64,000 bases of DNA from an uncultured Lactobacillales bacterium. Lineage in GTDB: Bacteria > Pseudomonadota > Alphaproteobacteria > CAYJES01. Below the pieces are notes generated by a model that worked only from the letters and a program-made list of their open reading frames with translations, had not been told where the DNA came from and ran no database searches. The stretch lies in contig CAYJES010000003.1 in NCBI GenBank assembly GCA_964369365.1, forward strand, positions 17,872-81,871, given 5' to 3'. The position numbers and the translations under genes are program-made. The first letter of the stretch is position 1, and each line of letters opens with the position of its first letter. Shown here one piece after another: positions 11,877-50,106 of the stretch.

Positions 11877-14357
11877 CTAACAAGAACTTAATGAATTTAA
11901 AACTTCTTCTGGGTTCCAATTCTTTGCAAATTCAGTCATTTCATCAGCAGGAAGCGCTTTTGAAAATAAAAATCCTTGAATAGATGTACATCCAATATCA
12001 CGCAACAAACAATAAATATCTTTTGTTTCCACGCCTTCTGCTAGTACTTTTAAGTTTAAAGCTTTTGCCATTGCAATGGTTGCACTTACTATTGATGCAT
12101 CATTATAGTCATTAGTAATGTCTATTACAAATGAACGATCTATTTTTAGCTTGTTCAATGGAAAACGCTTTAAAACACTTAATGATGAATATCCCGTACC
12201 AAAGTCATCAATAGAACAAGTTATACCTTTTTCGAGTAATATTTTAATAACACGCTCTGCTTCCATTGGATTAATCATCGTAGAGCTTTCCGTTATTTCA
12301 ATTTCCAATTTATCCGGAGAAAGTTTTGTTTTTTCGAGAACTCCCTCTATCATTGCTAACAAATTTTTAGGATTATGGAATTGACGAGGAGATAAGTTTA
12401 CAGCAACAGGTGCAGATAAAACTCCCTGCTCTATCCATTTTTGATTTTGAGCGCACGCCTTTTCCAAAATACTTTCTGCTATTAAATCTATTAATCCAAA
12501 CTCTTCTGCTATTGGAATAAATATGCCAGGAGATATAATACCTTCATTACTTATCCATCTAGCCAACGCTTCTGTACCTACTATTTTTCCTGATTGAATA
12601 TCAATTTGAGGTTGGAAATATGGAATAATTTCTCCATTGTCCAGAGCATAACGAAGCTTGGTTCGTAAAGAGTTTGCGTTAACTATTGCTTGTTTAATTT
12701 CTTGGGAAAATATTTTATAATCTTTATAATCTTTTCTAGCTTTTTCAAGAGCTGCATTAGAATTTTTAATCAAAGAATTTGCGTCACTTCCATGTTCTGG
12801 ATAAATTGCAATCCCTATATTTATATTAATATCAAATATTTGCTCATTTACAATTATTGGAGCTTGAAATTCTTTCAAAATTTTATCAGTTAGCGCAGAA
12901 ATTTCATCATCATTCGAAATATAAGGGCGCACAATAACAAAAAGTCCACTAGTGGTATATGCTATAAAATCATCCGAAGTAAGGCAACCTTTAACCCTAT
13001 CTGCTATTCCGTTTAAAAGAGCATCACCGACGTCATGACCTGAAGAGGAATAAAAAGAGCTGAGATTTGTTGATGACAAAGACAATACAGCAACCTTTTT
13101 ATTATCCTTTTCAGCATTTTCAAGGATTGTTATTATTTCTTTACTTAAAAGTGCTCTATTAGGAGTGTCTGTTACTGGATGATAATATGCAAGATAGCTT
13201 ATTTGTTCAGACGCTTTTTTACGTTCAGTTACATCCAAAACAACACCGTGACAGACTATATGTCCATTATCTAAACGTTCTGGCTTTATTCTTATTTGAA
13301 CCCAACTATCTTTTTTGCTGAAATTTGGAAGTTCTTCGTCATAATATGGAAGAATTTTGCTGCTGTATAGTTTTTTTACATATTCGTCAAATTTAGCTTC
13401 TTTTAAAACTAGCGGTATGTATTTATCATAATCAACAAAAAGCTGCTCTGGCGAATATCCAAAAATATCGCTACTGCCATCACTGATATAGATCATTCTG
13501 TAGTTTGTTTCAGAATTTATCAACATTGTAAAGAATGCACATGGAAGAGCAGAAACAATCGTGCTTAGCTTCTCTTCTGTATCTTTTAATGTTGCTAGCG
13601 TTTCTTTTTGTTCACGTATATCTTTTATTAAAACAATAAAACTAAGCTCGCCTTGCATACGTAGTGCTGATATTGAAAATTCAATTGGGAAATAATCTCC
13701 ATTTTTTTTCAAGCCAAGATATTCAAATACAGACGCATCTTCGAAAACATCATTTTCTTTTTCTAGATAATTACCTATAAAATTGTCACATTCTGTCTTA
13801 TCCTCTGGCGCCAAAAGGAAAGAAATATTTTGTCCTATTAATTCAGATATTTCATATCCAAAAACTTCTGATACTGCGGTATTTATATCAGTTATAGTAC
13901 CGTTTTTATCGGTATTTACAATTACATCTGTAGATCTTTCTAATATTATATTTAATTTTTGTTCAGCTTGTTTTTTAGATGTCTCGTCAAAAAGAAAACC
14001 TTCCCACATTACCGAATCATCTTCTTGTTTTGTGGCGATAACCCTACCAGAAAGCCAGAATACCTGACCTTTTTTATTAATTATGCGGAAACTTTCCGTA
14101 TATGAAGTTAAATCTTTTTCTGATTTTTCTATTTGCTGAGATATTAAATATCTGTCCGCCCAATGAACCGAATCGATATAGCCTTTTGCAGATATGATTA
14201 TTTCTTCATCAGAAGGTATATCCAACATTTTATAAATTTCGTCATTTAAGAAATCATATGTGAATTTACCGGCAGAATCCTTATACCTGCGATACACAAT
14301 CCCAGGGAAATTATTCATTTCATTTTTAACTGTTTTATTATTGCTATTTTTTAACAT
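11877..14357 (-). CDS. PAS-containing c-di-GMP phosphodiesterase (degenerate GGDEF domain plus an intact EAL domain)
   Basis: EAL domain motifs are present: QPQIDIQSGKIVGTEALARW, EIEITES, DDFGTGYSSLS, KIDRSFV. The GGDEF position reads YSSSGHD, which is degenerate. N-terminal PAS-like modules. Confidence 0.8.
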   Translation of the reverse strand: MLKNSNNKTVKNEMNNFPGIVYRRYKDSAGKFTYDFLNDEIYKMLDIPSDEEIIISAKGYIDSVHWADRYLISQQIEKSEKDLTSYTESFRIINKKGQVFWLSGRVIATKQEDDSVMWEGFLFDETSKKQAEQKLNIILERSTDVIVNTDKNGTITDINTAVSEVFGYEISELIGQNISFLLAPEDKTECDNFIGNYLEKENDVFEDASVFEYLGLKKNGDYFPIEFSISALRMQGELSFIVLIKDIREQKETLATLKDTEEKLSTIVSALPCAFFTMLINSETNYRMIYISDGSSDIFGYSPEQLFVDYDKYIPLVLKEAKFDEYVKKLYSSKILPYYDEELPNFSKKDSWVQIRIKPERLDNGHIVCHGVVLDVTERKKASEQISYLAYYHPVTDTPNRALLSKEIITILENAEKDNKKVAVLSLSSTNLSSFYSSSGHDVGDALLNGIADRVKGCLTSDDFIAYTTSGLFVIVRPYISNDDEISALTDKILKEFQAPIIVNEQIFDININIGIAIYPEHGSDANSLIKNSNAALEKARKDYKDYKIFSQEIKQAIVNANSLRTKLRYALDNGEIIPYFQPQIDIQSGKIVGTEALARWISNEGIISPGIFIPIAEEFGLIDLIAESILEKACAQNQKWIEQGVLSAPVAVNLSPRQFHNPKNLLAMIEGVLEKTKLSPDKLEIEITESSTMINPMEAERVIKILLEKGITCSIDDFGTGYSSLSVLKRFPLNKLKIDRSFVIDITNDYNDASIVSATIAMAKALNLKVLAEGVETKDIYCLLRDIGCTSIQGFLFSKALPADEMTEFAKNWNPEEVLNSLSSC

Positions 14358-16184: not shown

Positions 16185-17867
16185 TTATCCTATTCCGTAA
16201 CCATAATAAAATGGTTTTTTATAAACCTTTATTTTGTTAACGTTTGAAAATTCCAATCTGTTCGCTCCATGATATAAAACCCCAGAGTTATCAGGCAATA
16301 CTTTGTTACGATTTTGATACTCTATTAAATCTGAAACGCTCATAAATAATCCGTTTTCAAATTTTACGTTCCATCCATATGTATTATTATCTTCACATTC
16401 TAGGCAAATTGTATCTACACCTTCATCGCCCGAAAAAAATGTATTTTCATGATATGATGAAAAAGCAAAACTTTTTGATTCTATTTCATCAATCTCAATA
16501 TCAGAATTATAATTTGATGGCTTATATTCACCTAATTTTTTAATTTCCATCGATATTTTGGCTGCATTATAAAAATATAATGATGTTGATTTAGGTCCGA
16601 TTAAAATACCATTTTTACCCCCTAAATTAATAACATCTTCGCCTTTTAAATTTATTTCATAAAGCGACATTGATAACAACTTCCACGCATCACTTTTTTC
16701 TGGGAAGGTGAAAGAATCTCCATAGTTTATAGCAATAGATTCATTATTTGTCGTATTTTGCAGTAATCCTAAAGAAAAATTATCATCAGAAGAAAGATTA
16801 AAAATTTCGCCTTTATCCATTTTTATTTCTTGTTCCTGATTATTACAAACAAAAAGCCTCCATCCATTTAATGAAGATGATGAAATTACTATTTCACTTT
16901 CATCACTTCCAAAAAACATTTTAACGCCATCACCTGATTTTATTTCAATCTTATCTTCTTTTTTAGTTTCGGTATTTAGTACAATAGGGAAACTTTCTGA
17001 TTTATTGTCAGATTTAAAGGTTTCGTTACCTTGAGCAACGGTGTCAGTTTTGCTATCTATTTCATCTTTATCTACTATCAAGTTATTTGTTTCTGATTCA
17101 TTTGTGAAAACTTCTTCTTGATTTATTTCAAGAGTGCTTTGTTGAACATTTTCTTTTTCTGGTTCAATCTTTTCCTCTGGCTCAAACTTTCCTTCTATTG
17201 CTACATCTTCAATATCATCTTCGTGCGTATTATTTTCAAATTCTAAATCATCATCTGAAGTAACGTCTAGATCTATTTTATCCTCTTCTTCTACTTTTAT
17301 ATCTTCTGGTGTGTCTATTTTGATGTCATCTACAAAAACATTTTCAGTTAGATTCTTTTCTTCTAGCTCTGATATACTTTCATTTTTATTGGAAGATTCA
17401 AACACAGACTTTTCCTCAGATTTAGATTCATCTAATTCAAGATAATCACTATTTGACGCATCTTCATAATCTTCAGACACTCTATATTTATTTTGAGATA
17501 AATCAAAATGTCCAGCAGAAGATTCTAAATCATCAACATTTTCTTGTAAATATGGGTTAGTCGAAAGTTGTTCAGATTTTTCAGGAACAAATAACACAGA
17601 TGAATCGTCATTTTCAGAAACTTCTGATATTTCTTCATTTTCATTATTTGTTTGTTCGTCATCTTTTTTCGCTGCTAATTGCTCTATTACTGATGACACA
17701 TCTTCATCATAATTTGCAATAGCATCATCAGCATTTAACAATAATTCATCAATAGAATCTACCGAATCGTATTCTTTCTCTTCTGTTTGTAAAGGAGCTT
17801 TCTCCTCTATTTGCTTTTTGCCTTTAAAAGGAGGAGGTTTTGGTATACTTCTTTTTTCTTCGCTCAT
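16185..17867 (-). CDS. hypothetical protein with a highly acidic, low-complexity N-terminal half and a beta-rich C-terminal domain
   Basis: 560 aa. About the first 300 aa are D/E/S-rich. No signal peptide. The start codon is 14 nt after the envZ-like stop. Confidence 0.5.
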   Translation of the reverse strand: MSEEKRSIPKPPPFKGKKQIEEKAPLQTEEKEYDSVDSIDELLLNADDAIANYDEDVSSVIEQLAAKKDDEQTNNENEEISEVSENDDSSVLFVPEKSEQLSTNPYLQENVDDLESSAGHFDLSQNKYRVSEDYEDASNSDYLELDESKSEEKSVFESSNKNESISELEEKNLTENVFVDDIKIDTPEDIKVEEEDKIDLDVTSDDDLEFENNTHEDDIEDVAIEGKFEPEEKIEPEKENVQQSTLEINQEEVFTNESETNNLIVDKDEIDSKTDTVAQGNETFKSDNKSESFPIVLNTETKKEDKIEIKSGDGVKMFFGSDESEIVISSSSLNGWRLFVCNNQEQEIKMDKGEIFNLSSDDNFSLGLLQNTTNNESIAINYGDSFTFPEKSDAWKLLSMSLYEINLKGEDVINLGGKNGILIGPKSTSLYFYNAAKISMEIKKLGEYKPSNYNSDIEIDEIESKSFAFSSYHENTFFSGDEGVDTICLECEDNNTYGWNVKFENGLFMSVSDLIEYQNRNKVLPDNSGVLYHGANRLEFSNVNKIKVYKKPFYYGYGIG

Positions 17868-41762: not shown

Positions 41763-43829
41763 TTAAACTGTTTCTCTTTTACGGAATTGGATGCTTAATT
41801 TATCCAATAAAACCTCAAAATTCACAGGTTTTCCAATATGATCATCCATACCAGCATCAAGCGAACGCTTTACATCAGCATCTAATGCATTTGCAGTTAC
41901 CGCTATTATCGGAATTCCTTTTAATTCTGGAATTTTTAACGACCTAATTTCTCTTGTTGTTTCATATCCATCTTTAAGAGGCATATGAATGTCCATCAAA
42001 ATAGCGTCATATTTTTCTGGACTAGCTTTTATTTTTTCCAGCGCAATAATTCCATTTTCAGCTTCATCAACATTTATTCCTACGCTGCTTAACAATGTTA
42101 CAACTATTTCCCTGTTGATTGCGATATCCTCAACTAATAAAACGTTTCTGCCCGCGAAATCTACTGCACTTTCTTCTGTTTTTTCAGGTTTCTTTGCACA
42201 AGGAATTTCTCCTCTGGTGACTGGGAATCTTACTGTGAAAACCGCACCTTTACCAAATGCACTATCTACCTCTATTGTTCCACCCATCATATCAAGTATA
42301 CTTTTGCACAAGCTAAGCCCTAATCCTGTTCCGCCATATTCACGTGCAGTTGTATTATCTACTTGCTCAAATTTTAAAAATAATCTTTTTTGAGATTCTT
42401 CTGTAATTCCTATCCCAGTATCAGAAACTATAAATTCAAGCTGCTCTTTATTTTTACCTTTTTCTGGAATTAAATTTATGCTCATTGACACAGATCCACC
42501 TTTAGGAGTGAATTTTATAGCATTTGACAATAGATTAATTAAAACTTGCGATATTCTTGTGTCATCTCCTACTATTATTTCTGGAACATTTTCATCAAGT
42601 TCTACTTTAAAATTTTGACTTTTTTCAATTGTGTGGACACTCATAATATTTTTAACGTTATGCAAGGCTGCTAATAAATTAAATGGCTTACTAATTAATT
42701 CGAATTTGCCACCATCAATTTGACTCATATCCAATATATCATTGATTATTGATAACAATTGACGCGATGCCAAATCAACAGAATCAAGACATTCCAGTAT
42801 TTTCTGCCTGTCTGTTGAACCTCTGGCTATTTTTGACATTCCTGTTATTGCATTAATTGGAGTTCTAACTTCATGGCTTATAGTGGCAAGAAAATCTGTT
42901 TTTGCCTTAGCGCTTTGTTGGGCTTCTTCTTTTGCTACTAATAAATTTTTGGTCATTTCATTACGAAGATAACTGTTTGCAAATAGTATACTTACAGATC
43001 TTAATATTATCTCATCTTCTTCCGTGAAAACCCTTTCTTTATGACAGTCATCAAAACCTACAAACCCCCAAAATTCTTCCTCAATAAATATTGGGACCAC
43101 CATTAAAGAAATAATATCTTGAGCCTCTAACAACTCTTTTTCCTCTTTGATTGCAAAATCTTTAACAAGTCTATTTATACATTTATTCGTTGATAAATCA
43201 GGATACCAAGATTCCAAAAAAGGAATGAGCATTGTTAATTCATTTCCTTGTTGAGGCTCTGCCCCCCCTGACCATTCATATACTTGTCCACAATATAAGC
43301 TTCCATCTTTTGTAAAGTTTTGCCATATATAAACCCTGTCAACACCGAAGGTTACACCTAATCTACCCATGCATTCATATAAAACTTTGTTATAATTTTT
43401 GACGTTTGATGCAAAAAGCATCGCAGAAATTTCATTAATAGTGTGTAAAACTTTATCTTGTTTTATTACTTCGCCTATTCTTATTCTTGCTTCTGTTAAA
43501 GCTGATTTTTTATTACTGTGCAAATCTTTTATAATATTTTCTAATGAAGAATCTTTATTCATTTTGCTCATTTTTCTTAATCTATCATTGAAAAATAATA
43601 AAGATAATAACATTGCATTTAAAAATAAAAATACAGCAAAATACCCAAACATTTCATTATCTGCAGCGTCGATAAAAACCAAAGAAGACCCTATGGTCAG
43701 CAAAATAATCCCGCAAATCACCAGCATAGAAAAAATGTTATTTAGAAAAAATCTGCTTTTATAAATAGACCAGAAAACAGAAACAGACCCTATAACAATT
43801 AAAGATATTGAAATCGGAAAAGAAATCAT
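41763..43829 (-). CDS. hybrid sensor histidine kinase / response regulator with a GAF domain
   Basis: N-terminal TM segments, GAF-like region, HisKA (ATISHEVRTPINAI), HATPase (GGTGLGLSLC), C-terminal REC (VLLVEDIAINREIV...LMDIHMPLKDG). Confidence 0.8.
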   Translation of the reverse strand: MISFPISISLIVIGSVSVFWSIYKSRFFLNNIFSMLVICGIILLTIGSSLVFIDAADNEMFGYFAVFLFLNAMLLSLLFFNDRLRKMSKMNKDSSLENIIKDLHSNKKSALTEARIRIGEVIKQDKVLHTINEISAMLFASNVKNYNKVLYECMGRLGVTFGVDRVYIWQNFTKDGSLYCGQVYEWSGGAEPQQGNELTMLIPFLESWYPDLSTNKCINRLVKDFAIKEEKELLEAQDIISLMVVPIFIEEEFWGFVGFDDCHKERVFTEEDEIILRSVSILFANSYLRNEMTKNLLVAKEEAQQSAKAKTDFLATISHEVRTPINAITGMSKIARGSTDRQKILECLDSVDLASRQLLSIINDILDMSQIDGGKFELISKPFNLLAALHNVKNIMSVHTIEKSQNFKVELDENVPEIIVGDDTRISQVLINLLSNAIKFTPKGGSVSMSINLIPEKGKNKEQLEFIVSDTGIGITEESQKRLFLKFEQVDNTTAREYGGTGLGLSLCKSILDMMGGTIEVDSAFGKGAVFTVRFPVTRGEIPCAKKPEKTEESAVDFAGRNVLLVEDIAINREIVVTLLSSVGINVDEAENGIIALEKIKASPEKYDAILMDIHMPLKDGYETTREIRSLKIPELKGIPIIAVTANALDADVKRSLDAGMDDHIGKPVNFEVLLDKLSIQFRKRETV

Positions 43830-43901: not shown

Positions 43902-44570
43902 TTGATATTTATAAAAGAGGAATTTATGAAAGAAACAGCATTAAAAATAAGTGATTTTATGGATATTGTTGAAAAATTATGTCTTGTTAATAGAGATAAT
44001 TTATTATCTGATGGTTCTGTTGAGAGTGATGCTGCGCACATAACAAAACTGGCCTTTTTAGTTTTATTTACCACTCCTTATTTAAAAAGAAAAGTCGACG
44101 TTAATAAAATGCTTGAAATGGTTATTGTTCATGATTTGGCAGAAGCGCATTGTGGAGATGTGCCATTGTCGCACCAACATCTTGACCCTAATGCAAAAGC
44201 ATTAAAAAAAGAAAGAGAACAAAAAGCAATAGAACACTTTAAAACTTTATTGCCTACACCTATTAATGAAAAAATTTATGATTTATTCCAAGAATATGAA
44301 AAAAGGGAAACTATTGAATCTAAAATTGTTTGGTGCCTAGATAAATTAGAGGCTAATAGCCAAGCGAATCGCCACAAAGATGGCGACATACGGTATTGGG
44401 AAGAAGCAGGAGGCGGCGATTGGTATTACAGATATGCCCTTAGAAAAAATGTAGTTATTGATGAACTTGATGAGGAAATTTTAAATGAACTTGAACAAAT
44501 TTTGATTGATAAAACTATATTCAATATGAAAAAACATAACATTCCAATTCCTGTGAGCGAAAATGATTGA
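43902..44570 (+). CDS. HD-domain phosphohydrolase (YfbR-like 5'-deoxynucleotidase family)
   Basis: ESDAAHITKLA...VHDLAEAHCGDVP is the HD motif. Confidence 0.6.
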   Translation: MIFIKEEFMKETALKISDFMDIVEKLCLVNRDNLLSDGSVESDAAHITKLAFLVLFTTPYLKRKVDVNKMLEMVIVHDLAEAHCGDVPLSHQHLDPNAKALKKEREQKAIEHFKTLLPTPINEKIYDLFQEYEKRETIESKIVWCLDKLEANSQANRHKDGDIRYWEEAGGGDWYYRYALRKNVVIDELDEEILNELEQILIDKTIFNMKKHNIPIPVSEND

Positions 44571-46380
44571 AGCTAAAAATATTACGTACCGCATTGGTGA
44601 GAGAATTTTATTCGATGACGCATCTTTTTCCATCACAAAAGGTCAAAAAATAGGGTTAATTGGTCCTAATGGTTCTGGTAAAACTACACTTTTAAAAATT
44701 TTACAAAATATACTTGAAACAGATAAAGGCGATATTGTTTATAATGGCAAAGACATAAAAATAACAACCATTAATCAAGAAATTCCAAATACAGATATTT
44801 CGGTGATAGATTTTGTTTTAAAAATGGATAAAAAACGCCATGAGCTGTTAAAATTAGCAGAATCGAATCCTGAAAATATCGCTGAAATTCATGAACAATT
44901 AAATGCTATTAATGCTTCTGCTGCTCCTAGTCGTGCCGCTAGCATCCTTGCTGGACTTGGGTTTAGTAATGACGATATAAAACGACCTATATGCGAATTT
45001 TCAGGTGGATGGCAAATGAGGGCTGCTTTGGCTGGGGCTTTATTTTTCAGTGGTGATTTACTGTTGCTTGATGAACCTACTAATCATCTTGATTTAGAAA
45101 CCGCTATATGGCTGGAAAATTATTTAGTTAAAACTTCTGCAACAATACTTATCATAAGTCATGATAGAAATATTTTAAACAAAGTTTGCAACGGAATAAT
45201 AAGTATAGAAAATGAAAAAATTATTTCATATGGTGGAAATTATGATACTTATGAAAAGACAAAAGCAATGCGAATCGACTTATTAAAAAAACAAGCGCAA
45301 AAATATGAAATAAGAAAAAAACATTTACAAACATTTGTTGATAGGTTCAGGTACAAAGCTAGCAAAGCAAAACAAGCCCAAACCAGGCTTAAAATGATTG
45401 AAAAGATGGGAGATATGCCTGAAATCCCAAAAGATTATAGCGTTAAGTTTGATTTTCCTTCTCCTTCACTAATGCCTTCTCCCTTATTGCAGTTCGAAAA
45501 CGTTAATGCTGGGTATGGCGATAATATAGTTCTTAAAGATCTATCATTTAGGCTCGATCAAGATGATAGAATCGCTTTTTTAGGTCAAAATGGAAATGGT
45601 AAGACAACTCTTGCTAAAGTAATATCTGAAAAACTAGCCCCGATAAATGGAGATATTAAAAAAAGCGCCAAACTATCTGTCGCTTATTTTTCCCAAATTC
45701 AAACCGAGGAATTAGACGTTTCAAAAACTGCTTATCAAATCATGGCAAGACAAATGAAAAATGCATCTGAAGTTAAGGTGCGGGCTCATTTAGCTAGATT
45801 TGGACTTAGCGATGAAAAAGCAAATACAAGAATTGAACAAATTTCTGGTGGCGAAAAATCACGATTGCTTCTTGCTCTTATCACCAAAGATGCTCCAAAT
45901 ATCCTAATCCTTGATGAACCTACTAACCACCTTGACATAGCATCAAGAGAAGCACTTATCGACGCATTAAACGAATATCAAGGGGCCGTTATTTTAATTA
46001 CACACGATTTACATATAATTGAACTTACATGTGATAGATTATGGCTTGTAAAAAACAAAAATTGCCAAGAATTCAATGGCAACATTGAGGATTTTAAAAA
46101 TATTATTATAAGCGAAAATAAAGAATCCACAAAAAAAACAGAAGTAAAAGCAGGCAAACAAGTCTATCAAGAGCAAGTTAAAAAACGCCAAGAAAAACAA
46201 AATAAAGAAAGAAAATGTGAAAAAATCCTTGCTGAAATAGAAAAATTAGAAATTAAAAAAAATGAAATAGAAGCGGAAATAACAAATAATTATAGTGATT
46301 TATTACAAAAATCTTATAATGAAATTACTGAAAATATAACAAAACTTGAAGAAGAATATTTTTCTTTGCAAGAATCGTAA
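44563..46380 (+). CDS. ABC-F family ATPase (two ABC domains, C-terminal coiled coil)
   Basis: Two Walker A sites (GPNGSGKTT, GQNGNGKTT), two ABC signatures (FSGGWQMR, ISGGEKSR), no TM domain. Confidence 0.85.
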   Translation: MIEAKNITYRIGERILFDDASFSITKGQKIGLIGPNGSGKTTLLKILQNILETDKGDIVYNGKDIKITTINQEIPNTDISVIDFVLKMDKKRHELLKLAESNPENIAEIHEQLNAINASAAPSRAASILAGLGFSNDDIKRPICEFSGGWQMRAALAGALFFSGDLLLLDEPTNHLDLETAIWLENYLVKTSATILIISHDRNILNKVCNGIISIENEKIISYGGNYDTYEKTKAMRIDLLKKQAQKYEIRKKHLQTFVDRFRYKASKAKQAQTRLKMIEKMGDMPEIPKDYSVKFDFPSPSLMPSPLLQFENVNAGYGDNIVLKDLSFRLDQDDRIAFLGQNGNGKTTLAKVISEKLAPINGDIKKSAKLSVAYFSQIQTEELDVSKTAYQIMARQMKNASEVKVRAHLARFGLSDEKANTRIEQISGGEKSRLLLALITKDAPNILILDEPTNHLDIASREALIDALNEYQGAVILITHDLHIIELTCDRLWLVKNKNCQEFNGNIEDFKNIIISENKESTKKTEVKAGKQVYQEQVKKRQEKQNKERKCEKILAEIEKLEIKKNEIEAEITNNYSDLLQKSYNEITENITKLEEEYFSLQES

Positions 46381-46387
46381 AAAAATA

Positions 46388-46416
46388 TTGACAAATTATC
46401 TTTTCGAGGTTATTAT
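46388..46416 (+). promoter_or_regulatory. sigma70-like promoter (TTGACA-N17-TATTAT)
   Basis: TTGACA at 46388-46393, a 17-nt spacer, TATTAT at 46411-46416, upstream of the ORF at 46444. Confidence 0.35.
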
Positions 46417-46443
46417 TGATTATTATCAACTAATAATTTTTAT

Positions 46444-46839
46444 ATGAAAGGATATATCTCAATGGAAAAAATTTCTAACAAACCAACAAAACCTAACACA
46501 GAACTTACAAAAGCTCTTGAAAAATCAATTATGGTTGGGGTTTCTGAAGATAGAATGTCAAGAATTGTTAATGAAAAAAGCATTGATATTGTAAAAAGAT
46601 TGGGAGTTATCCAGGCTACTTTGAGCTTCACTGATAAAATTACTGAAAAAGAAATACTTCAATTAAAGGCAGAAGGTGCTGTTGCTTTGGTTATTTATAA
46701 CTTAAAGGAAGATGGTCATAAAAAAGAAGATGTAAAAAATATTTATGCCAATTCATTGCACGCTGCAAAAGCAAACTTAGAAAGAAGAGCAGCTAAAGCA
46801 AATAGACTTGATCTTTTAAAAGACCAAAATACTAGATAG
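46444..46839 (+). CDS. hypothetical protein
   Basis: 131 aa (or from MEKISNK at 46462). No recognisable domain. Has its own promoter and terminator. Confidence 0.4.
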   Translation: MKGYISMEKISNKPTKPNTELTKALEKSIMVGVSEDRMSRIVNEKSIDIVKRLGVIQATLSFTDKITEKEILQLKAEGAVALVIYNLKEDGHKKEDVKNIYANSLHAAKANLERRAAKANRLDLLKDQNTR

Positions 46840-46859
46840 CTAAGTCTAATTAATAAAAA

Positions 46860-46890
46860 AAAGGGGAATTTAAAAATTCCTCTTTTTTAT
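46860..46890 (+). terminator. rho-independent terminator
   Basis: ggggaattt/aaattcctc hairpin followed by TTTTTTATTT. Confidence 0.55.
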
Positions 46891-46918
46891 TTGAAAAAAC
46901 TGTTTTAAACTTAATCCT

Positions 46919-47782
46919 ATGGAAAAAATAAATCTAAATATTGATGAAACTAGGCAAAAAGCCATTAACTTTGTCACAACATCGTGGCAAGCTTATGAAA
47001 TAAATGAAAAATATCCTGTTAAAGATTATGATTCTTTGATTAATAATGCATTTAATGATCTTGTTGCTGATAAAGATAAATATCCGATGATGATGCGTAT
47101 TTGTGGGCAATCGGGAAGCGGTAAATCCACCCAACTATTGCCTGCTGCAAAAGAAGGATTCAAAATGTTTAATGTTAATCCTATTTGTGTTGCAGTACGA
47201 AATTTTGCGCCATACCATCCTTATTATAATGAAATAAAAGAAAAATATGGTGAAGATATGTTAAGGGAAAACACCAATGGTTTTGCCTTACTGTTATTAT
47301 TTTTAACTTTAGAAAAATTGATTATTTCCGGATATCCTATTATTTTTGAAGTTACACTTCTTGATAGTTATTTCGAGCTATATTTTGCTGAACTTGCTAA
47401 AAAATATAATTACCATATTGATTACCACCTGATTTCTGTTTCAAAAAATCAATCTGATAGATGGATTGATGAACGTAAAATATTTTCAGAGGTTGAAAAA
47501 AATCGAATCGTTGCAACTAGTTCTTCTGATTATTTTTATAAAGCTCTGCCTATTGCTATCGAATCGTTACAAAACATAGAAAATAGCAATAAATGTTATA
47601 TATGGAATGGATATCAAAACGAACCTGTTTATAGCGGTTTATTGTCTGATAAGAAAGTATTGCAAAACCTTAGACAATTTCAAAAAGAAACTTTTGCCCC
47701 TAAAAATCCTGATGAATTAAGAATGGCAAAAATAAGTTGGTTCAAAAAACACTATTCATCCAAATTAAGCGCTACGTCGTAG
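46919..47782 (+). CDS. zeta-toxin-family P-loop kinase-like protein
   Basis: Walker A [32 protein letters not shown] aligns with zeta [23 protein letters not shown], and GYPIIFEVT with GYNLVIEGT (zeta sequence from memory). Monocistronic. Confidence 0.5.
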   Translation: [287 protein letters not shown]

Positions 47783-48606
47783 ACCATTTTCTTTTTAATA
47801 TCTAATAATTTTGCGACATGGGAAATTGCTTGTTTTTTATCCATATTTTTAAGATTTTTAGAAAGCTCTGATGTTATTAATTCCGGCGTTACTTCTTGTT
47901 TTTGTTTTATTATTTCCATAAGTAAAACTATTTCGCCTTTTATCGCAGGTTTTTCGGTGTAATGCTTTATTAAATTTGAAATAGAATCAGTAGTTACCTC
48001 TTCGAATTTTTTGGTAAGTTCCCTTGCAATGCATACTCTGATATCGCCAAAAACCTCTAACGCTAGTGAAAGTGTTGCAAGAATTCTTGGGGCTGTTTCA
48101 TAAAAAATTACGGTTGTGTCATCATAATTTTTTATTTTTTCAAACAACCTTTGTTTTTCCCCCGATTTCACAGGTAAAAATCCTTTAAATAAAAACGAAT
48201 CCGAAGCAAGACCAGATAATTGTAATGCAGTTATAACGGCACAGGCTCCTGGAATGGAAGTTACATAAATATCTTGCTCTTTACATTCTGATACTAATTT
48301 ATGACCTGGGTCGTTGATAAGAGGGCTGCCTGCATCTGATATTAACGCTATGCTTTTTCCTGATTTTATCGCATCTATTATACTTGGGATAACTTTTGTT
48401 GCATTGTGATCGTGATAACTGATTAATTTTTTTGAAATTTGATAGTAATTAAGCAAGGTTTTGCTGGTTCTTGTGTCTTCGCAAGCTATGATATCGACAC
48501 TTTTCAAAGTTTCAATAGCGCGCAAAGAAAAATCGCCCAAATTGCCAATAGGGGTTGCAACTATATATAATCCTGCTATTAATATATTATCATTTTTCTG
48601 TTTCAT
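47752..48606 (-). CDS. rsmI: 16S rRNA (cytidine1402-2'-O)-methyltransferase RsmI
   Basis: Tetrapyrrole-methylase fold N-terminus: LYIVATPIGNLGDFSLRAIETLKSVDIIACEDTRTS. Confidence 0.85.
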   Translation of the reverse strand: MKQKNDNILIAGLYIVATPIGNLGDFSLRAIETLKSVDIIACEDTRTSKTLLNYYQISKKLISYHDHNATKVIPSIIDAIKSGKSIALISDAGSPLINDPGHKLVSECKEQDIYVTSIPGACAVITALQLSGLASDSFLFKGFLPVKSGEKQRLFEKIKNYDDTTVIFYETAPRILATLSLALEVFGDIRVCIARELTKKFEEVTTDSISNLIKHYTEKPAIKGEIVLLMEIIKQKQEVTPELITSELSKNLKNMDKKQAISHVAKLLDIKKKMVYDVALNLDE

Positions 48607-48624: not shown

Positions 48625-50106
48625 GTGTTTAATTCACGTGTAAAACATTTATTTTTTATTGGGCTTATTTTTCTTGCTGCGTGTAAAGGAACTGGGGTTG
48701 TTTACGAACCTTCTGCTGATTCAAGCCCAAGGATTATAACGCCTGCCAACGCGTATGAAAATAATATTGAAACAATAGAAGAAAATAATTTTAGTTCAGG
48801 ATACGAAGAAGAAAGTGCAAATAAAAAAACTAAATCAGACTTGAGAGTAGGAATCCTTGCGCCGTTTTCTGGTGACTATGAAAAACTTGGGACTGCTATT
48901 AAAAATACCGCATTAATGGCTCTTTATGAAATATCTTCTGAAAACGTTGTGGTTCAATTTTATGATACAAAAGGAACAGAAGAAGGCGCTTATGACGCTG
49001 CTTATGAAGCAATAAATCAAAATGTAGATATTATCATTGGTCCTGTATTTTCACATGAAGTTGCCGCTATTAGAGGAATTACAAACAGTGCAGGAATCGA
49101 TGTTCTTGCGTTTACTTCTGATCCATACGTTTTAGGTGGAAATATTTATACATTAGCCCTATTACTTCCGCAACAAATTGATAGAATTATTAATTATGCA
49201 TGTAGAAATGGGAAAAAGAATTTTGCAATCCTTACACATGATTCTGATTTTGGAAGAATTGCTGTCGAATCGGCTGAAAACGCTGTTTTAAAATGCGATA
49301 ATGATGCAGCCATTTTAAATATTGGTTACTACTCTCCTAAACAAGGCGATATGGTATCGGTGGTTAAAGGTTTAACAGGAGACAGAAGTGTTTTCGTCGA
49401 CAACCTGCGTAAAAAACAAAAAGGTGAAGGTAATTATGCAGAAGGAGTTAACCTTGGTTATGATGAAGAAATCGATATTTTAACTGTATATAAATCATCA
49501 GAAGACATTCCTTTGGATTTTGACGCACTTTTAATTGCTGATGAAGGTGCTAATCTTCGTGCGCTTGCCGCTGTTTTAAATTATTATGACATTACAAATG
49601 ACGAAGTTATGTTCTTAGGCACTCAACAATGGTCTGATCCTAAACTTGCTCTTGAAAAAGCCCTTGTCGGCGGATATTATCCTGAAATTCCAGTTACAGG
49701 ATTCAGCGATTATGCAAAAAGATATCGTGAAGTCTATAAAAGCGTTCCTCCTAGAATAGCAAGTCAAGCTTATGATGGTATTGCTCTTATATCTGTTCTT
49801 GCTAGAAATAACGACTTTTCAGCCGAGGCTATTACTGATGCTTCTGGCTTTGCTGGGGTTGATGGAATTTTTAGGTTACTTGAAAATGGACATTCTCAAC
49901 GTGGTATGGCTATTATGGAAATGGCACGTCCACAGGCAAAAGTTGTCGAATATTCTCCTAACTCTTTTAATGAAGACGTTACATACGAACAACATTTTAT
50001 AAATGAAACTCCTAATGAAAATATAGTTGTAAACGAAGAGCAACTTGAAATTAAAGAAGAAGAAGAAGAAACTAAAAAAAGTTTCCTTAAAGAATGGTTT
50101 CAATAA
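48625..50106 (+). CDS. lipoprotein with a type-1 periplasmic-binding-protein (LivJ/LpoA-like) fold
   Basis: Lipobox LAAC; RVGILAPFSGDYEKLGTAIKNTALMALYE is typical of Peripla_BP_6-like proteins. Confidence 0.45.
   Translation: MFNSRVKHLFFIGLIFLAACKGTGVVYEPSADSSPRIITPANAYENNIETIEENNFSSGYEEESANKKTKSDLRVGILAPFSGDYEKLGTAIKNTALMALYEISSENVVVQFYDTKGTEEGAYDAAYEAINQNVDIIIGPVFSHEVAAIRGITNSAGIDVLAFTSDPYVLGGNIYTLALLLPQQIDRIINYACRNGKKNFAILTHDSDFGRIAVESAENAVLKCDNDAAILNIGYYSPKQGDMVSVVKGLTGDRSVFVDNLRKKQKGEGNYAEGVNLGYDEEIDILTVYKSSEDIPLDFDALLIADEGANLRALAAVLNYYDITNDEVMFLGTQQWSDPKLALEKALVGGYYPEIPVTGFSDYAKRYREVYKSVPPRIASQAYDGIALISVLARNNDFSAEAITDASGFAGVDGIFRLLENGHSQRGMAIMEMARPQAKVVEYSPNSFNEDVTYEQHFINETPNENIVVNEEQLEIKEEEEETKKSFLKEWFQ

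Follow-up and report, generated by a model that had tools for sequence, protein, structure and literature searches.

The window, a 64-kb stretch of DNA, encodes a 287-aa homologue of the bacterial zeta/PezT kinases that belongs to a clade in which the catalytic aspartate of these toxins has been replaced. This Asp-less zeta-fold clade is a previously undescribed branch of the zeta/PezT family; it has no conserved antitoxin and is recurrently coupled to a second kinase resembling the APH(2'')/Mph enzymes. We propose, with a probability of about 0.55, that the gene is intact and that its zeta/PezT-fold product transfers phosphate from ATP without being toxic, its acceptor site having been remodelled.

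Results

Family and fold of the 287-aa protein

The kinase gene and the segments discussed below are located as follows.

46919..47782, + strand: 287-aa zeta-fold P-loop kinase homologue, member of the Asp-less clade (ORF list, Pfam, phmmer, AF2, Foldseek)
47105..47131, + strand: Walker A / P-loop GQSGSGKST, aa 63-71, with K69 invariant in 81/81 clade members
47192..47206, + strand: A92-V93-R94-N95-F96, aligned with zeta D65-N66-D67-T68-F69, so that the zeta base Asp67 corresponds to Arg94
47264..47278, + strand: clade-specific motif R116-E117-N118-T119-N120 (residue census)

An earlier note on this DNA had described a 287-aa zeta-toxin-like P-loop kinase at this locus and had named a Pfam/HMM search as a check. 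The ORF has the length it gave, and in that search the product passed the curated cut-off of Pfam Zeta_toxin (PF06414) with 57.9 bits against 22.3 (E=1.2e-15, aa 52-219). A phmmer search against the PDB returned PezT (2p5t, E 1.5e-8) and zeta (1gvn, E 3e-4). The AF2 model was confident and compact (pLDDT 93), and its top Foldseek matches in the PDB were zeta (3q8x/1gvn, E 3.5e-11) and then PezT (2p5t), the three entries spanning E 3.5e-11 to 2e-9 and TM 0.54-0.68. These results confirm the protein as a true relative of the bacterial zeta/PezT kinases, with similarity far above chance. Against the NCBIfam PezT equivalog NF041574 (cut-off 470) it scored only 35.5 bits, the best of the PADLOC defence-system models was only AbiLi (E=0.004, 14 bits), and a Pfam scan down to E=10 found no chloramphenicol-phosphotransferase family.

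The ATP side is kept and the acceptor side is changed

Like the UDP-GlcNAc 3'-kinases zeta and PezT (1gvn, 3q8x, 2p5t), the window protein has PF06414, the same fold, a Walker A of the form GQxGxGK[ST] and the 'F..HP' segment. Zeta K46, E116 and the lid arginines R158 and R171 correspond to its K69, E144, R186 and R196, and a census of 81 clade members found K69, E/D144 and R186 in 81/81 each and R196 in 80/81. The segment alignments given in the earlier note were right in substance: AVRNF lies opposite DNDTF, 'IIFEVT' aligns with zeta 'LVIEGT' (E144 with E116, T146 with T118), and the 'DER' segment carries R186 at the zeta R158 site.

Asp67 of zeta, equivalent to Asp66 in PezT, forms a hydrogen bond with the 3'-OH, and the PezT mutant D66T has neither activity nor toxicity (PMC3062530). 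The reading of this segment as VRNF, already noticed from the sequence, is borne out by the alignment of Arg94 with Asp67. The replacement extends through the clade, where the position is Arg in 64 members, Gly in 14, Ser in 3 and Asp in 0/81, whereas Asp67 is present in 29/29 of the nearest outgroup zeta proteins. Zeta T118 is kept, as T146 in the window protein and in 64/81 clade members. Other acceptor positions were mapped by sequence alignment at ~17-20% identity, without structural superposition, and on this basis zeta R120 becomes L148 (clade: L 74, Q 4, V 3), E100 becomes F128 and T128 becomes F156, the last two being mainly hydrophobic clade-wide. The UDP-GlcNAc contact set T118/R120/E100/T128 therefore appears incomplete in this alignment, with only T118 retained.

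Unlike ordinary zeta proteins, the clade has invariant R60, R116-E117-x-T119-N120, W229, P236 and K271, and the window protein carries each of them. The clade also has a conserved C-terminal region: its members match the profile to about position 280, and ordinary zeta proteins end near 230. Within the RExTN motif, R116 occurs in 81/81 members, E117 in 71/81, T119 in 80/81 and N120 in 73/81. R116-E117-x-T119-N120 may have taken over a role in binding the acceptor or in catalysis. The window protein retains the ATP-side residues and all clade-invariant motifs, so it is under constraint and not decaying.

The clade spans many phyla in chromosomal settings

The clade comprises ~86 representatives at 50% identity (n=86, taken at E<=1e-30), and 90 genomic relatives were found, of which 80 loci were retained. 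Its bearers, mostly gut metagenome genomes, are Rickettsiales, Holosporales, other Alphaproteobacteria, Opitutales/Puniceicoccales, Saccharibacteria, Clostridia and Synergistales; Nomurabacteria also carry it, as do some very small genomes. It spans at least six phyla, and similarity does not follow taxonomy, identity to the window protein being 42% in Synergistales and 40-43% in Rickettsiales. Orthologues at 30-56% identity in many lineages all share the same substitutions.

The neighbours of clade genes are chromosomal housekeeping genes (rpoA-rplQ, tsaE, rsmI, typA, lolCD, mla), and synteny is stable inside orders, with the order rpoA-rplQ-kinase in 12 Opitutales/Verrucomicrobia loci. No clade member was found in plasmid and phage collections. 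Translation-related neighbours (rsmI, tsaE, rplQ, rpsP, rlmN, ftsJ, typA, ABC-F) were informally judged not clearly above small-genome expectation.

Several further associations are confined to parts of the clade. An ankyrin-repeat gene lies directly upstream of the kinase in six Rickettsiales loci, and a heterodimeric MsbA-like exporter in clostridial loci. DAGK_cat neighbours the kinase in Patescibacteria and GlmS in Clostridia, and there are single fusions to IspH and to a HAD-IB phosphatase. These fusions and neighbours (IspH, HAD-IB, DAGK_cat, GlmS) diverge and indicate no shared substrate. The IspH fusion (P0048), considered as a pointer to isoprenoids, is a weak hint: it sits on a single 2-kb contig, and none of the 80 loci has an IspH gene next to the kinase.

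An APH(2'')/Mph-like kinase is a frequent partner

The earlier note had taken the protein for a lone, orphan zeta-like kinase, a description that does not hold for the clade: an APH(2'')/Mph-like kinase, a context absent from that note, adjoins the clade gene or is fused to it in 43/80 loci. The arrangement is convergent in 26, directly downstream in 11, upstream in 1 and fused in 5, and the directly downstream genes usually overlap the clade gene by 7 nt. Two further fusions were found (P0053, P0075). The remaining 37/80 loci, this window included, have no APH gene in view, none being encoded in its 64 kb, so that, judged by gene order, the partnership is optional.

The nearest solved relatives of the partner are APH(2'') and Mph (profile E ~1e-16, nearly full length). 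Like them it keeps the HxDxxxxN catalytic loop, here an intact HGDxNPGN, with a DF motif; it also has invariant motifs of its own, TGWTN and FRFPRN, and it scored ~20-48 bits against curated resistance-family cut-offs of 205-650, far below them. Pairwise distances of kinase and partner were correlated (r = 0.87, 38 pairs), as is expected for any two co-inherited genes.

Two known modules were compared with this arrangement and set aside. For an AmgK-MurU pair salvaging cell-wall sugar, the sole adjacent NTP-transferase (L068) is RmlA, and the partner profile finds no anomeric sugar kinase in the PDB. For an msr/mph-type macrolide operon, ABC-F is nearby only in the window and in L058, the other 600-700-aa upstream genes being TypA/BipA or MsbA-like exporters.

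The upstream ORF and the transcription context

The features flanking the kinase gene in the window are as follows.

46388..46416, + strand: sigma-70-like promoter candidate TTGACA-17 nt-TATTAT, 11/12 consensus match, upstream of the 131-aa ORF
46444..46839, + strand: 131-aa ORF, predicted all-helical, lineage-specific; the public annotation starts at 46462 (125 aa)
46863..46892, + strand: intrinsic-terminator-like hairpin with an 8-bp stem GGGGAATT/AATTCCTC, loop TAAA and a T6AT3 tail (folding)
47752..48606, - strand: rsmI-like methyltransferase (TP_methylase), convergent, overlapping the kinase 3' end by 31 nt

The gene order around the kinase is HD hydrolase, ABC-F, lineage-specific ORF, kinase, rsmI and LpoA-like, and the convergent kinase/rsmI-like overlap is conserved in the closest relative (L081). 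Other genes of the window specify flagellar proteins, hybrid histidine kinases and a c-di-GMP phosphodiesterase; the closest matches of its DnaB are in uncultured Alphaproteobacteria and in Rhodospirillales. No secretion-system genes lie beside the kinase in the window.

The 131-aa gene is present as the earlier note had reported, and the view that it is not an epsilon-like antitoxin is upheld. It falls in no family of Pfam or NCBIfam, has no match but itself in a search of 5.8 billion proteins, has a homologue in none of the 80 related loci, is absent from the syntenic L081, and shows no fold or sequence match to epsilon/PezA in a PDB sequence search and Foldseek with its AF2 model (pLDDT 58). 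The idea of an antitoxin, negative in each of these searches, is weakened, and we see no evidence for such a role. A small co-directional ORF precedes the kinase in only 16 of the 78 loci with an upstream gene in view; these are 5 rplQ, 2 IalB and otherwise unrelated singletons (for example S16, DUF5662, Sel1), and no upstream gene is conserved among the 78 loci compared.

The hairpin folds with dG -15.8 kcal/mol (z -2.76; 3/200 shuffles as stable). It is preceded by an A-run and could terminate transcription in both directions, to judge by its sequence. Flanking A/T runs lengthen its stem, which is probably why a simple pattern scan for terminators did not list it. The kinase had been called monocistronic. 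A terminator-like hairpin does follow the 131-aa ORF, but monocistronic transcription is not established, because the hairpin tail ends at 46892, ~26 nt ahead of the kinase ATG at 46919, and no promoter-like site was found between them. The sole strong promoter-like site near the locus is that at 46388-46416, and promoter-like sites in the region are no more numerous than in shuffles.

Discussion

A proposed remodelled phosphotransferase

The proposed phosphotransferase combines a preserved ATP-binding half (Walker A Lys, E/D following strand 3, two lid arginines) with a rebuilt acceptor half, in which the general-base Asp has given way to Arg (Gly/Ser in some sub-lineages) and, by the alignment, the UDP-GlcNAc contacts mostly to hydrophobic residues. 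The clade has no conserved antitoxin and would need none. Since the APH coupling recurs across phyla as adjacent, convergent and fused genes, the clade kinase and its APH-like partner most likely act on the same small molecule, by sequential or dual phosphorylation. The loss of the base and the gain of arginines and hydrophobics suggest an acceptor whose apolar body carries an anionic head, which may already be phosphorylated. The APH-type partner might make a phosphomonoester, and the zeta-fold enzyme might extend or further modify this product. A counterpoint is that loss of the general base could leave an enzyme that is a poor kinase, that only hydrolyses ATP or that serves as a regulatory subunit binding ATP.

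Adenylate/NMP kinases, the animal-type phosphomevalonate kinase and the 6-phosphofructo-2-kinase domain act on anionic acceptors with arginines and no Asp base. Their arginine-not-Asp pattern resembles that of the clade; the likeness would be a mechanistic analogy, with no specific sequence relationship beyond the fold. A PFK-2 kinase domain, of the same broad P-loop kinase fold class, was among the structural matches of the kinase model.

A more specific scheme is conceivable but doubtful. It is a two-kinase pathway, mainly of gut-associated and small-genome bacteria, in which the APH-type enzyme would phosphorylate a hydroxyl and the zeta-fold enzyme the resulting phosphomonoester, giving the diphosphate of a scavenged alcohol. 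Such a route might start from thiamine, from a prenol or polyprenol, or from some other cofactor precursor of amphipathic character. If it were true, a toxin fold would have been repurposed, or zeta toxins would derive from such a metabolic kinase.

Comparison with known systems

Unlike zeta/PezT, the clade has Arg94 in place of Asp67, with R120, E100 and T128 replaced, mostly by hydrophobics. Unlike epsilon-zeta and PezAT, it has no epsilon/PezA and no plasmid or prophage association, and its frequent partner is an APH-family kinase. The two-enzyme fusions are like AAC(6')-APH(2''), but they join kinase to kinase and not acetyltransferase to kinase.

AvrRxo1 (4z8v), a Xanthomonas type III effector and NAD 3'-kinase with Arc1 as antitoxin/chaperone, is a zeta-related P-loop kinase whose substrate is not UDP-GlcNAc, and shows that the zeta fold has been recruited for other acceptors. 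To the kinase model it is a distant fold match (E 3e-5, TM 0.47). AvrRxo1 is a secreted protein that keeps the catalytic Asp and is encoded next to a gene for a neutralising partner. The Asp-less clade showed none of this, and the 78 clade loci contain no conserved, Arc1-like adjacent small partner gene.

Alternative explanations

With the general base lost in 81/81 members and Arg, Gly and Ser all tolerated in its place, the protein might be a pseudo-kinase or regulatory ATP-binding subunit that binds or hydrolyses ATP without small-molecule transfer, for example as an accessory to the APH-type catalyst, to whose intact catalytic loop it is tightly linked and sometimes fused. We find this unlikely: the ATP-side catalytic residues are strictly conserved, the two lid arginines and the E/D following strand 3 among them, a polar motif that is new and invariant (R116-E117-x-T119-N120) is found next to the former acceptor site, and in many loci no APH partner adjoins the gene. 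A specific sub-case of our preferred reading is that the two kinases form a module inactivating an antibiotic or xenobiotic, directed against a sugar-bearing, ribosome-targeting natural product of gut communities. This would account for the spread across gut phyla, at least six of them and mostly in gut-derived metagenomes, with similarity independent of taxonomy. It is also consistent with the aminoglycoside 2''-kinases and macrolide 2'-kinases as the partner's nearest solved relatives, with AAC(6')-APH(2'') as a precedent for two fused resistance enzymes, with the MsbA-like heterodimeric exporter directly upstream in clostridial loci, and with the broad fold class that zeta shares with chloramphenicol phosphotransferase. 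Yet the clade is on no plasmid or phage record, its stable within-order synteny (the 12 rpoA-rplQ-kinase loci) and presence in very small genomes resemble a core function, the Pfam scan to E=10 gave no chloramphenicol-phosphotransferase family, and the msr/mph-like ABC-F link failed, ABC-F being nearby in the window and L058 only; we judge such a module quite unlikely.

That the protein is a genuine toxin is improbable, whether its antitoxin were the 131-aa protein, reached by read-through of a leaky terminator, or, elsewhere, the APH-like kinase in a type VII-like manner. Co-transcription is plausible, since the 131-aa ORF follows the sole strong promoter-like site and the ~26 nt from the hairpin to the ATG contain no such site, and the 131-aa protein is small and predicted helical, in which it resembles epsilon and PezA in its C-terminal part. 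There are published reports of orphan PezT or of non-canonical partners (PMC10532202; PMC6362051). The clade as a whole, however, lacks the residue whose mutation abolishes PezT toxicity and is missing from mobile-element collections; the 131-aa ORF has no homologue even in the syntenic L081 and no epsilon/PezA similarity; no upstream gene is conserved; and APH partners that are mostly convergent (26/43) or fused are unlike the logic of a TA operon. The earlier note had suggested that it could be a host-directed effector or, equally, a detoxified remnant. An AvrRxo1-like secreted protein phosphorylating a nucleotide or nucleotide sugar in a eukaryotic host has a zeta-fold precedent among the structural matches (AvrRxo1; PMC5087710, PMC4938570), and could draw on the host association of Rickettsiales and Holosporales and on the ankyrin-repeat gene directly upstream in six Rickettsiales loci. 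It is nevertheless highly improbable. The clade occurs equally in Saccharibacteria, Nomurabacteria, Clostridia, Opitutales and Synergistales, and this multi-phylum spread, with housekeeping neighbours and no mobile context, is a misfit with a secreted effector of one host-restricted lineage. Moreover, the catalytic Asp is missing, the AvrRxo1 match is much weaker than those to zeta/PezT, no secretion-system genes stand beside the kinase in the window, and host restriction of the window organism, which has flagellar, c-di-GMP phosphodiesterase and hybrid histidine kinase genes, is an assumption. Decay of what was once a toxin gene would explain the missing Asp and antitoxin, but this reading is effectively refuted by clade-wide conservation: the loss of Asp is fixed (0/81 against 29/29 in the outgroup), the ORF is full length with the ATP side and every clade-invariant residue kept, the model is compact (pLDDT 93), and divergent orthologues across many lineages carry the same substitutions.

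Significance

Annotation as a toxin is almost automatic for zeta/PezT proteins, and a clade member is labelled "zeta toxin family protein" in one public record. The clade described here is a sizeable, widespread zeta branch from which the toxin hallmarks of catalytic Asp, UDP-GlcNAc pocket, antitoxin and mobile context are all absent, and the window gene gives no evidence for a TA system or an effector. The result corrects a likely systematic misannotation in gut-symbiont and candidate-phyla genomes. The clade is also a natural test of how P-loop kinase chemistry changes after replacement of the general base. Together with its partner it offers a tractable enzyme pair that very small genomes have also kept; identifying the substrate may uncover a route of salvage or detoxification.

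Fold and active site of the kinase

The kinase and its nucleotide-binding motif are positioned as follows:

46919..47782, forward strand: zeta-like kinase ORF, 287 aa
47105-47131, forward strand: Walker A motif GQSGSGKST, residues 63-71 of the protein

The protein matches Pfam Zeta_toxin (PF06414; E=1.2e-15, 57.9 bits, gathering score 22.3 bits), with AAA_33 and other P-loop families below threshold, and scores only 35.5 bits against the NCBIfam PezT equivalog (cut-off 470). A sequence search of the PDB returned PezT (2p5t, 1.5e-8) and zeta (1gvn, 3e-4) at the top. AlphaFold2, given a 25-sequence alignment, produced a confident model (pLDDT 93, pTM 0.90), for which the best Foldseek matches were zeta 3q8x/1gvn (E 3.5e-11, TM ~0.6) and PezT, followed by AvrRxo1, the 6-phosphofructo-2-kinase domain and polynucleotide kinases (E 1e-5 to 1e-3). 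These Pfam, PDB and Foldseek matches bear out an earlier note, which had described a zeta-toxin-like P-loop kinase.

Alignments of the protein with PezT and with zeta are concordant and agree with the segment correspondences that the note had drawn. Like zeta, the window protein contains E144, T146, R186, and R196 (zeta E116, T118, R158, and R171), whereas zeta R120 is replaced by L148. Zeta D65-N66-D67 corresponds to A92-V93-R94, confirming that the catalytic-Asp segment, here VRNF, is altered. Asp67 of zeta, proposed as the base, hydrogen bonds to the UDP-GlcNAc 3'-OH, the D66T variant of PezT shows no activity or toxicity, and T118, R120, E100, and T128 provide other specific substrate contacts (Mutschler et al., PMC3062530). 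Mapping of these residues indicates that the ATP side of the active site is retained, with the acceptor side probably reduced to the T118 equivalent.

A clade lacking the catalytic aspartate

A search of 5.8 billion proteins gave 28 clusters at 30-56% identity to the window protein, nearly all unnamed or "hypothetical". Profile searching of 1.84 billion representatives yielded 86 at E<=1e-30, which align to profile position ~280; below them the score drops to ordinary Zeta_toxin proteins, which align to ~230 only. In one genome per prokaryotic species, 90 relatives were found and 80 loci kept; record titles trace most of them to metagenome genomes from the guts of termites, ruminants, humans, rabbits, and horses. 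They span Rickettsiales, Holosporales and other Alphaproteobacteria, Opitutales/Puniceicoccales, Saccharibacteria, Nomurabacteria, Synergistales, Clostridia/Christensenellales, and Eggerthellaceae.

Residue census of 81 clade proteins (80 loci and the window protein) aligned together with zeta
Zeta K46, window K69: K 81
Zeta E116, window E144: E 50, D 31
Zeta R158, window R186: R 81
Zeta R171, window R196: R 80, K 1
Zeta D67, window R94: R 64, G 14, S 3; Asp never
Zeta D65, window A92: A, S, N, G or T; Asp never
Zeta R120, window L148: L 74, Q 4, V 3
Zeta E100, window F128: mostly hydrophobic
Zeta T128, window F156: hydrophobic

The D67 column is Asp in 29/29 of the nearest non-clade representatives. 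Eight clade-specific residues are near-invariant (R60, R116, E117, T119, N120, W229, P236, and K271), and all are present in the window protein. This census and the retention of the clade's own residues argue that VRNF is a fixed, selected family feature, not a lesion of a dying gene. Plasmid and phage collections contained no clade member, their hits being classical PezT only at ~42% query coverage, and no defence-system model matched the window protein.

Upstream ORF and transcription

46388-46416: sole strong promoter candidate, TTGACA-17-TATTAT, an 11/12 near-consensus match ahead of the 131-aa ORF
46444..46839, forward strand: 131-aa ORF (125 aa in a public annotation)
46863-46892: terminator-like hairpin GGGGAATT/TAAA/AATTCCTC followed by a T-run (-15.8 kcal/mol, z = -2.8)

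Pfam and NCBIfam place the 131-aa ORF in no family, a search of 5.8 billion proteins returned only the ORF itself, and a homologue is present at 0/80 clade loci. Its AlphaFold2 model is all-helical and of low confidence (pLDDT 58), and the product resembles neither epsilon, PezA nor anything else in fold or sequence; it could represent a small regulatory protein or a lineage-specific gene of recent origin. The kinase's closest relative, P0002 (56% identity), comes from the syntenic locus L081, ordered kinase, convergent rsmI, LppC/LpoA-like gene; there a divergent, unrelated gene precedes the kinase. Only 16/78 clade loci have a small co-directional upstream ORF: five encode ribosomal protein L17, two IalB, and the other nine, including the window's, are mutually unrelated, those matching Pfam being S16, DUF5662, RAMA, and Sel1. 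A conserved antitoxin is absent from the clade, and the note's statement that none is obvious stands.

The hairpin was detected by folding and is missing from a pattern-based scan. Its tail ends 26 nt from the kinase ATG (46919) with no promoter-like site between, so the note's description of the kinase as monocistronic is not established. Read-through from the promoter upstream of the 131-aa ORF is at least as plausible as separate transcription, and therefore a small residual probability of a co-transcribed partner persists, outweighed by the clade census and antitoxin evidence.

An APH-family partner and the genomic neighbourhoods

Neighbour clustering and a custom HMM located an APH-family protein (PF01636) at 43/80 clade loci. 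It is convergent, usually with overlapping tails, at 26 loci; co-directional and immediately downstream, typically with a 7-nt overlap, at 11; directly upstream at one; and joined to the kinase in a single kinase-N/APH-C protein (559-659 aa) at five. Two further fusions occur among the representatives (P0053, P0075), and the second-closest homologue, P0003, also has a convergent partner. The partner retains an intact HGDxNPGN catalytic loop and DF motif and carries its own signatures, TGWTN and FRFPRN. Its profile is nearest to APH(2'') aminoglycoside kinases and macrolide 2'-phosphotransferases (E ~1e-16, nearly full length), and it scores far under every curated resistance-family cut-off. 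Pairwise distances of kinase and partner correlate (r = 0.87, 38 pairs), as expected of co-inherited genes, showing that the two travel together. No partner gene lies within the window, nor within ~6 kb either side in the closest Rickettsiales or the Opitutales/Puniceicoccales loci. At L008 (6797-8398, reverse strand) the partner, at 533 aa, is roughly double the normal size and lacks an NCBIfam hit at E<=1e-5; duplication or extension may account for it.

Clade neighbourhoods are chromosomal and housekeeping, with rpoA-rplQ (12 loci), tsaE (6 loci), lolCD, lolA, rlmN, alr, typA, MsbA-like exporters, mlaD, glmS, and ftsJ. Ten Patescibacteria loci (Saccharibacteria and Nomurabacteria; L017, L038, L041, L042, L061-L065, L073) have a DAGK_cat-type (YegS/DgkB-like) lipid-kinase homologue at -1, overlapping the zeta-like start; some also have the APH partner downstream, giving three kinases of three folds in succession. 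At L017 alone, from Saccharimonadales, a RhuM/Fic-domain gene (6888-7886, forward strand) lies directly downstream, possibly a neighbour of mobile or toxin type. L048, L053, L066, L067, L070, L076, and related Clostridia/Eggerthellaceae loci carry a heterodimeric MsbA-like ABC exporter, the zeta-like kinase, and a convergent APH partner, followed in about 8-9 by GlmS and a GNAT acetyltransferase (directly checked in L048 only). In six Rickettsiales metagenome loci (L001-L003, L006, L007, L060), the zeta-like gene is overlapped by an ankyrin-repeat gene immediately upstream and, at its 3' end, by tsaE, and no APH partner is in view. Two other fusions were each seen once: zeta-like with C-terminal LytB/IspH (P0048; L083 98-1735, 2-kb contig) and HAD-IB phosphatase with C-terminal zeta-like domain (P0051), whose HAD has a related gene 2 kb upstream of the kinase at L058.

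The window's gene order runs HD-domain hydrolase, ABC-F ATPase, 131-aa ORF, kinase, rsmI (convergent, 31-nt overlap with the kinase), and LpoA-like gene. The last is so named because its L081 counterpart has LppC/Peripla_BP_6 domains.

43902-46380, forward strand: HD-domain (YfbR-like 5'-deoxynucleotidase family) and YheS-type ABC-F ATPase genes, directly upstream of the region that the note describes; the first overlaps the start of the second by 8 nt, suggesting an operon
48625-50106, forward strand: the LpoA-like ORF, 493 aa, no NCBIfam match at E<=1e-10

Source organism

599-5295, reverse strand: FlgK (733 aa), and an 827-aa protein of unusual length with a flagellin match at its C-terminal end
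11877-14357, reverse strand: PAS-GGDEF-EAL c-di-GMP phosphodiesterase
16185-17867, reverse strand: 560-aa ORF, no NCBIfam match at E<=1e-10
41763-43829, reverse strand: hybrid histidine kinase/response regulator

The window (G+C ~32%) also encodes IF-2, UvrC, DnaB, and MnmG. DnaB has three relatives at 75-77% identity, then uncultured Alphaproteobacteria (~53%) and Rhodospirillales (~50%). The organism is a low-G+C alphaproteobacterium. Flagellar genes in such a 32% G+C chromosome speak against a strongly reduced, non-motile endosymbiont, and the phosphodiesterase and hybrid kinase represent an environmental-sensing capacity untypical of host-restricted bacteria; the host restriction assumed in the note is undemonstrated.

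Interpretation

The best-supported reading is that the window gene encodes a putative active, non-toxic zeta-fold phosphotransferase with a rebuilt acceptor site and, in many lineages, a predicted functional link to an APH(2'')/Mph-like kinase. The general base has been exchanged for arginine, with two more clade-specific arginines (R60, R116) nearby, and the polar UDP contacts for mostly hydrophobic residues; together these changes suggest an acceptor whose head is anionic, possibly phosphorylated, and whose body is apolar. P-loop kinases of the NMP type phosphorylate phosphate groups without a base, and the clade's site logic would resemble theirs. An attractive proposal has two steps: the APH enzyme would act first and the zeta-fold enzyme second.

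Antibiotic inactivation by the kinase and its partner is a live alternative, in keeping with the partner's affinities to resistance kinases and the cross-phylum distribution in gut bacteria, and the window protein may instead have a pseudo-kinase role. The catalytic site, clade census, and antitoxin evidence, along with genomic context, make both a classical toxin and a secreted effector unlikely. The effector was one of two roles the note had offered; the other, a remnant, is likewise improbable given a substitution fixed clade-wide and near-invariant residues that the window protein keeps in full.

RefSeq surveys have already recorded orphan homologues of PezT/zeta (PMC10532202). Literature searches found no paper pairing "zeta toxin" with "phosphotransferase enzyme family", Pfam's name for the APH family, and the papers listed in further searches give no account of an Asp-less zeta clade or of a zeta link to an APH-family kinase. 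The window's own copy has no partner in view within 64 kb; across the family, the clade finding corrects what is likely a systematic "toxin" annotation and, with the APH partner, presents an enzyme pair open to testing.
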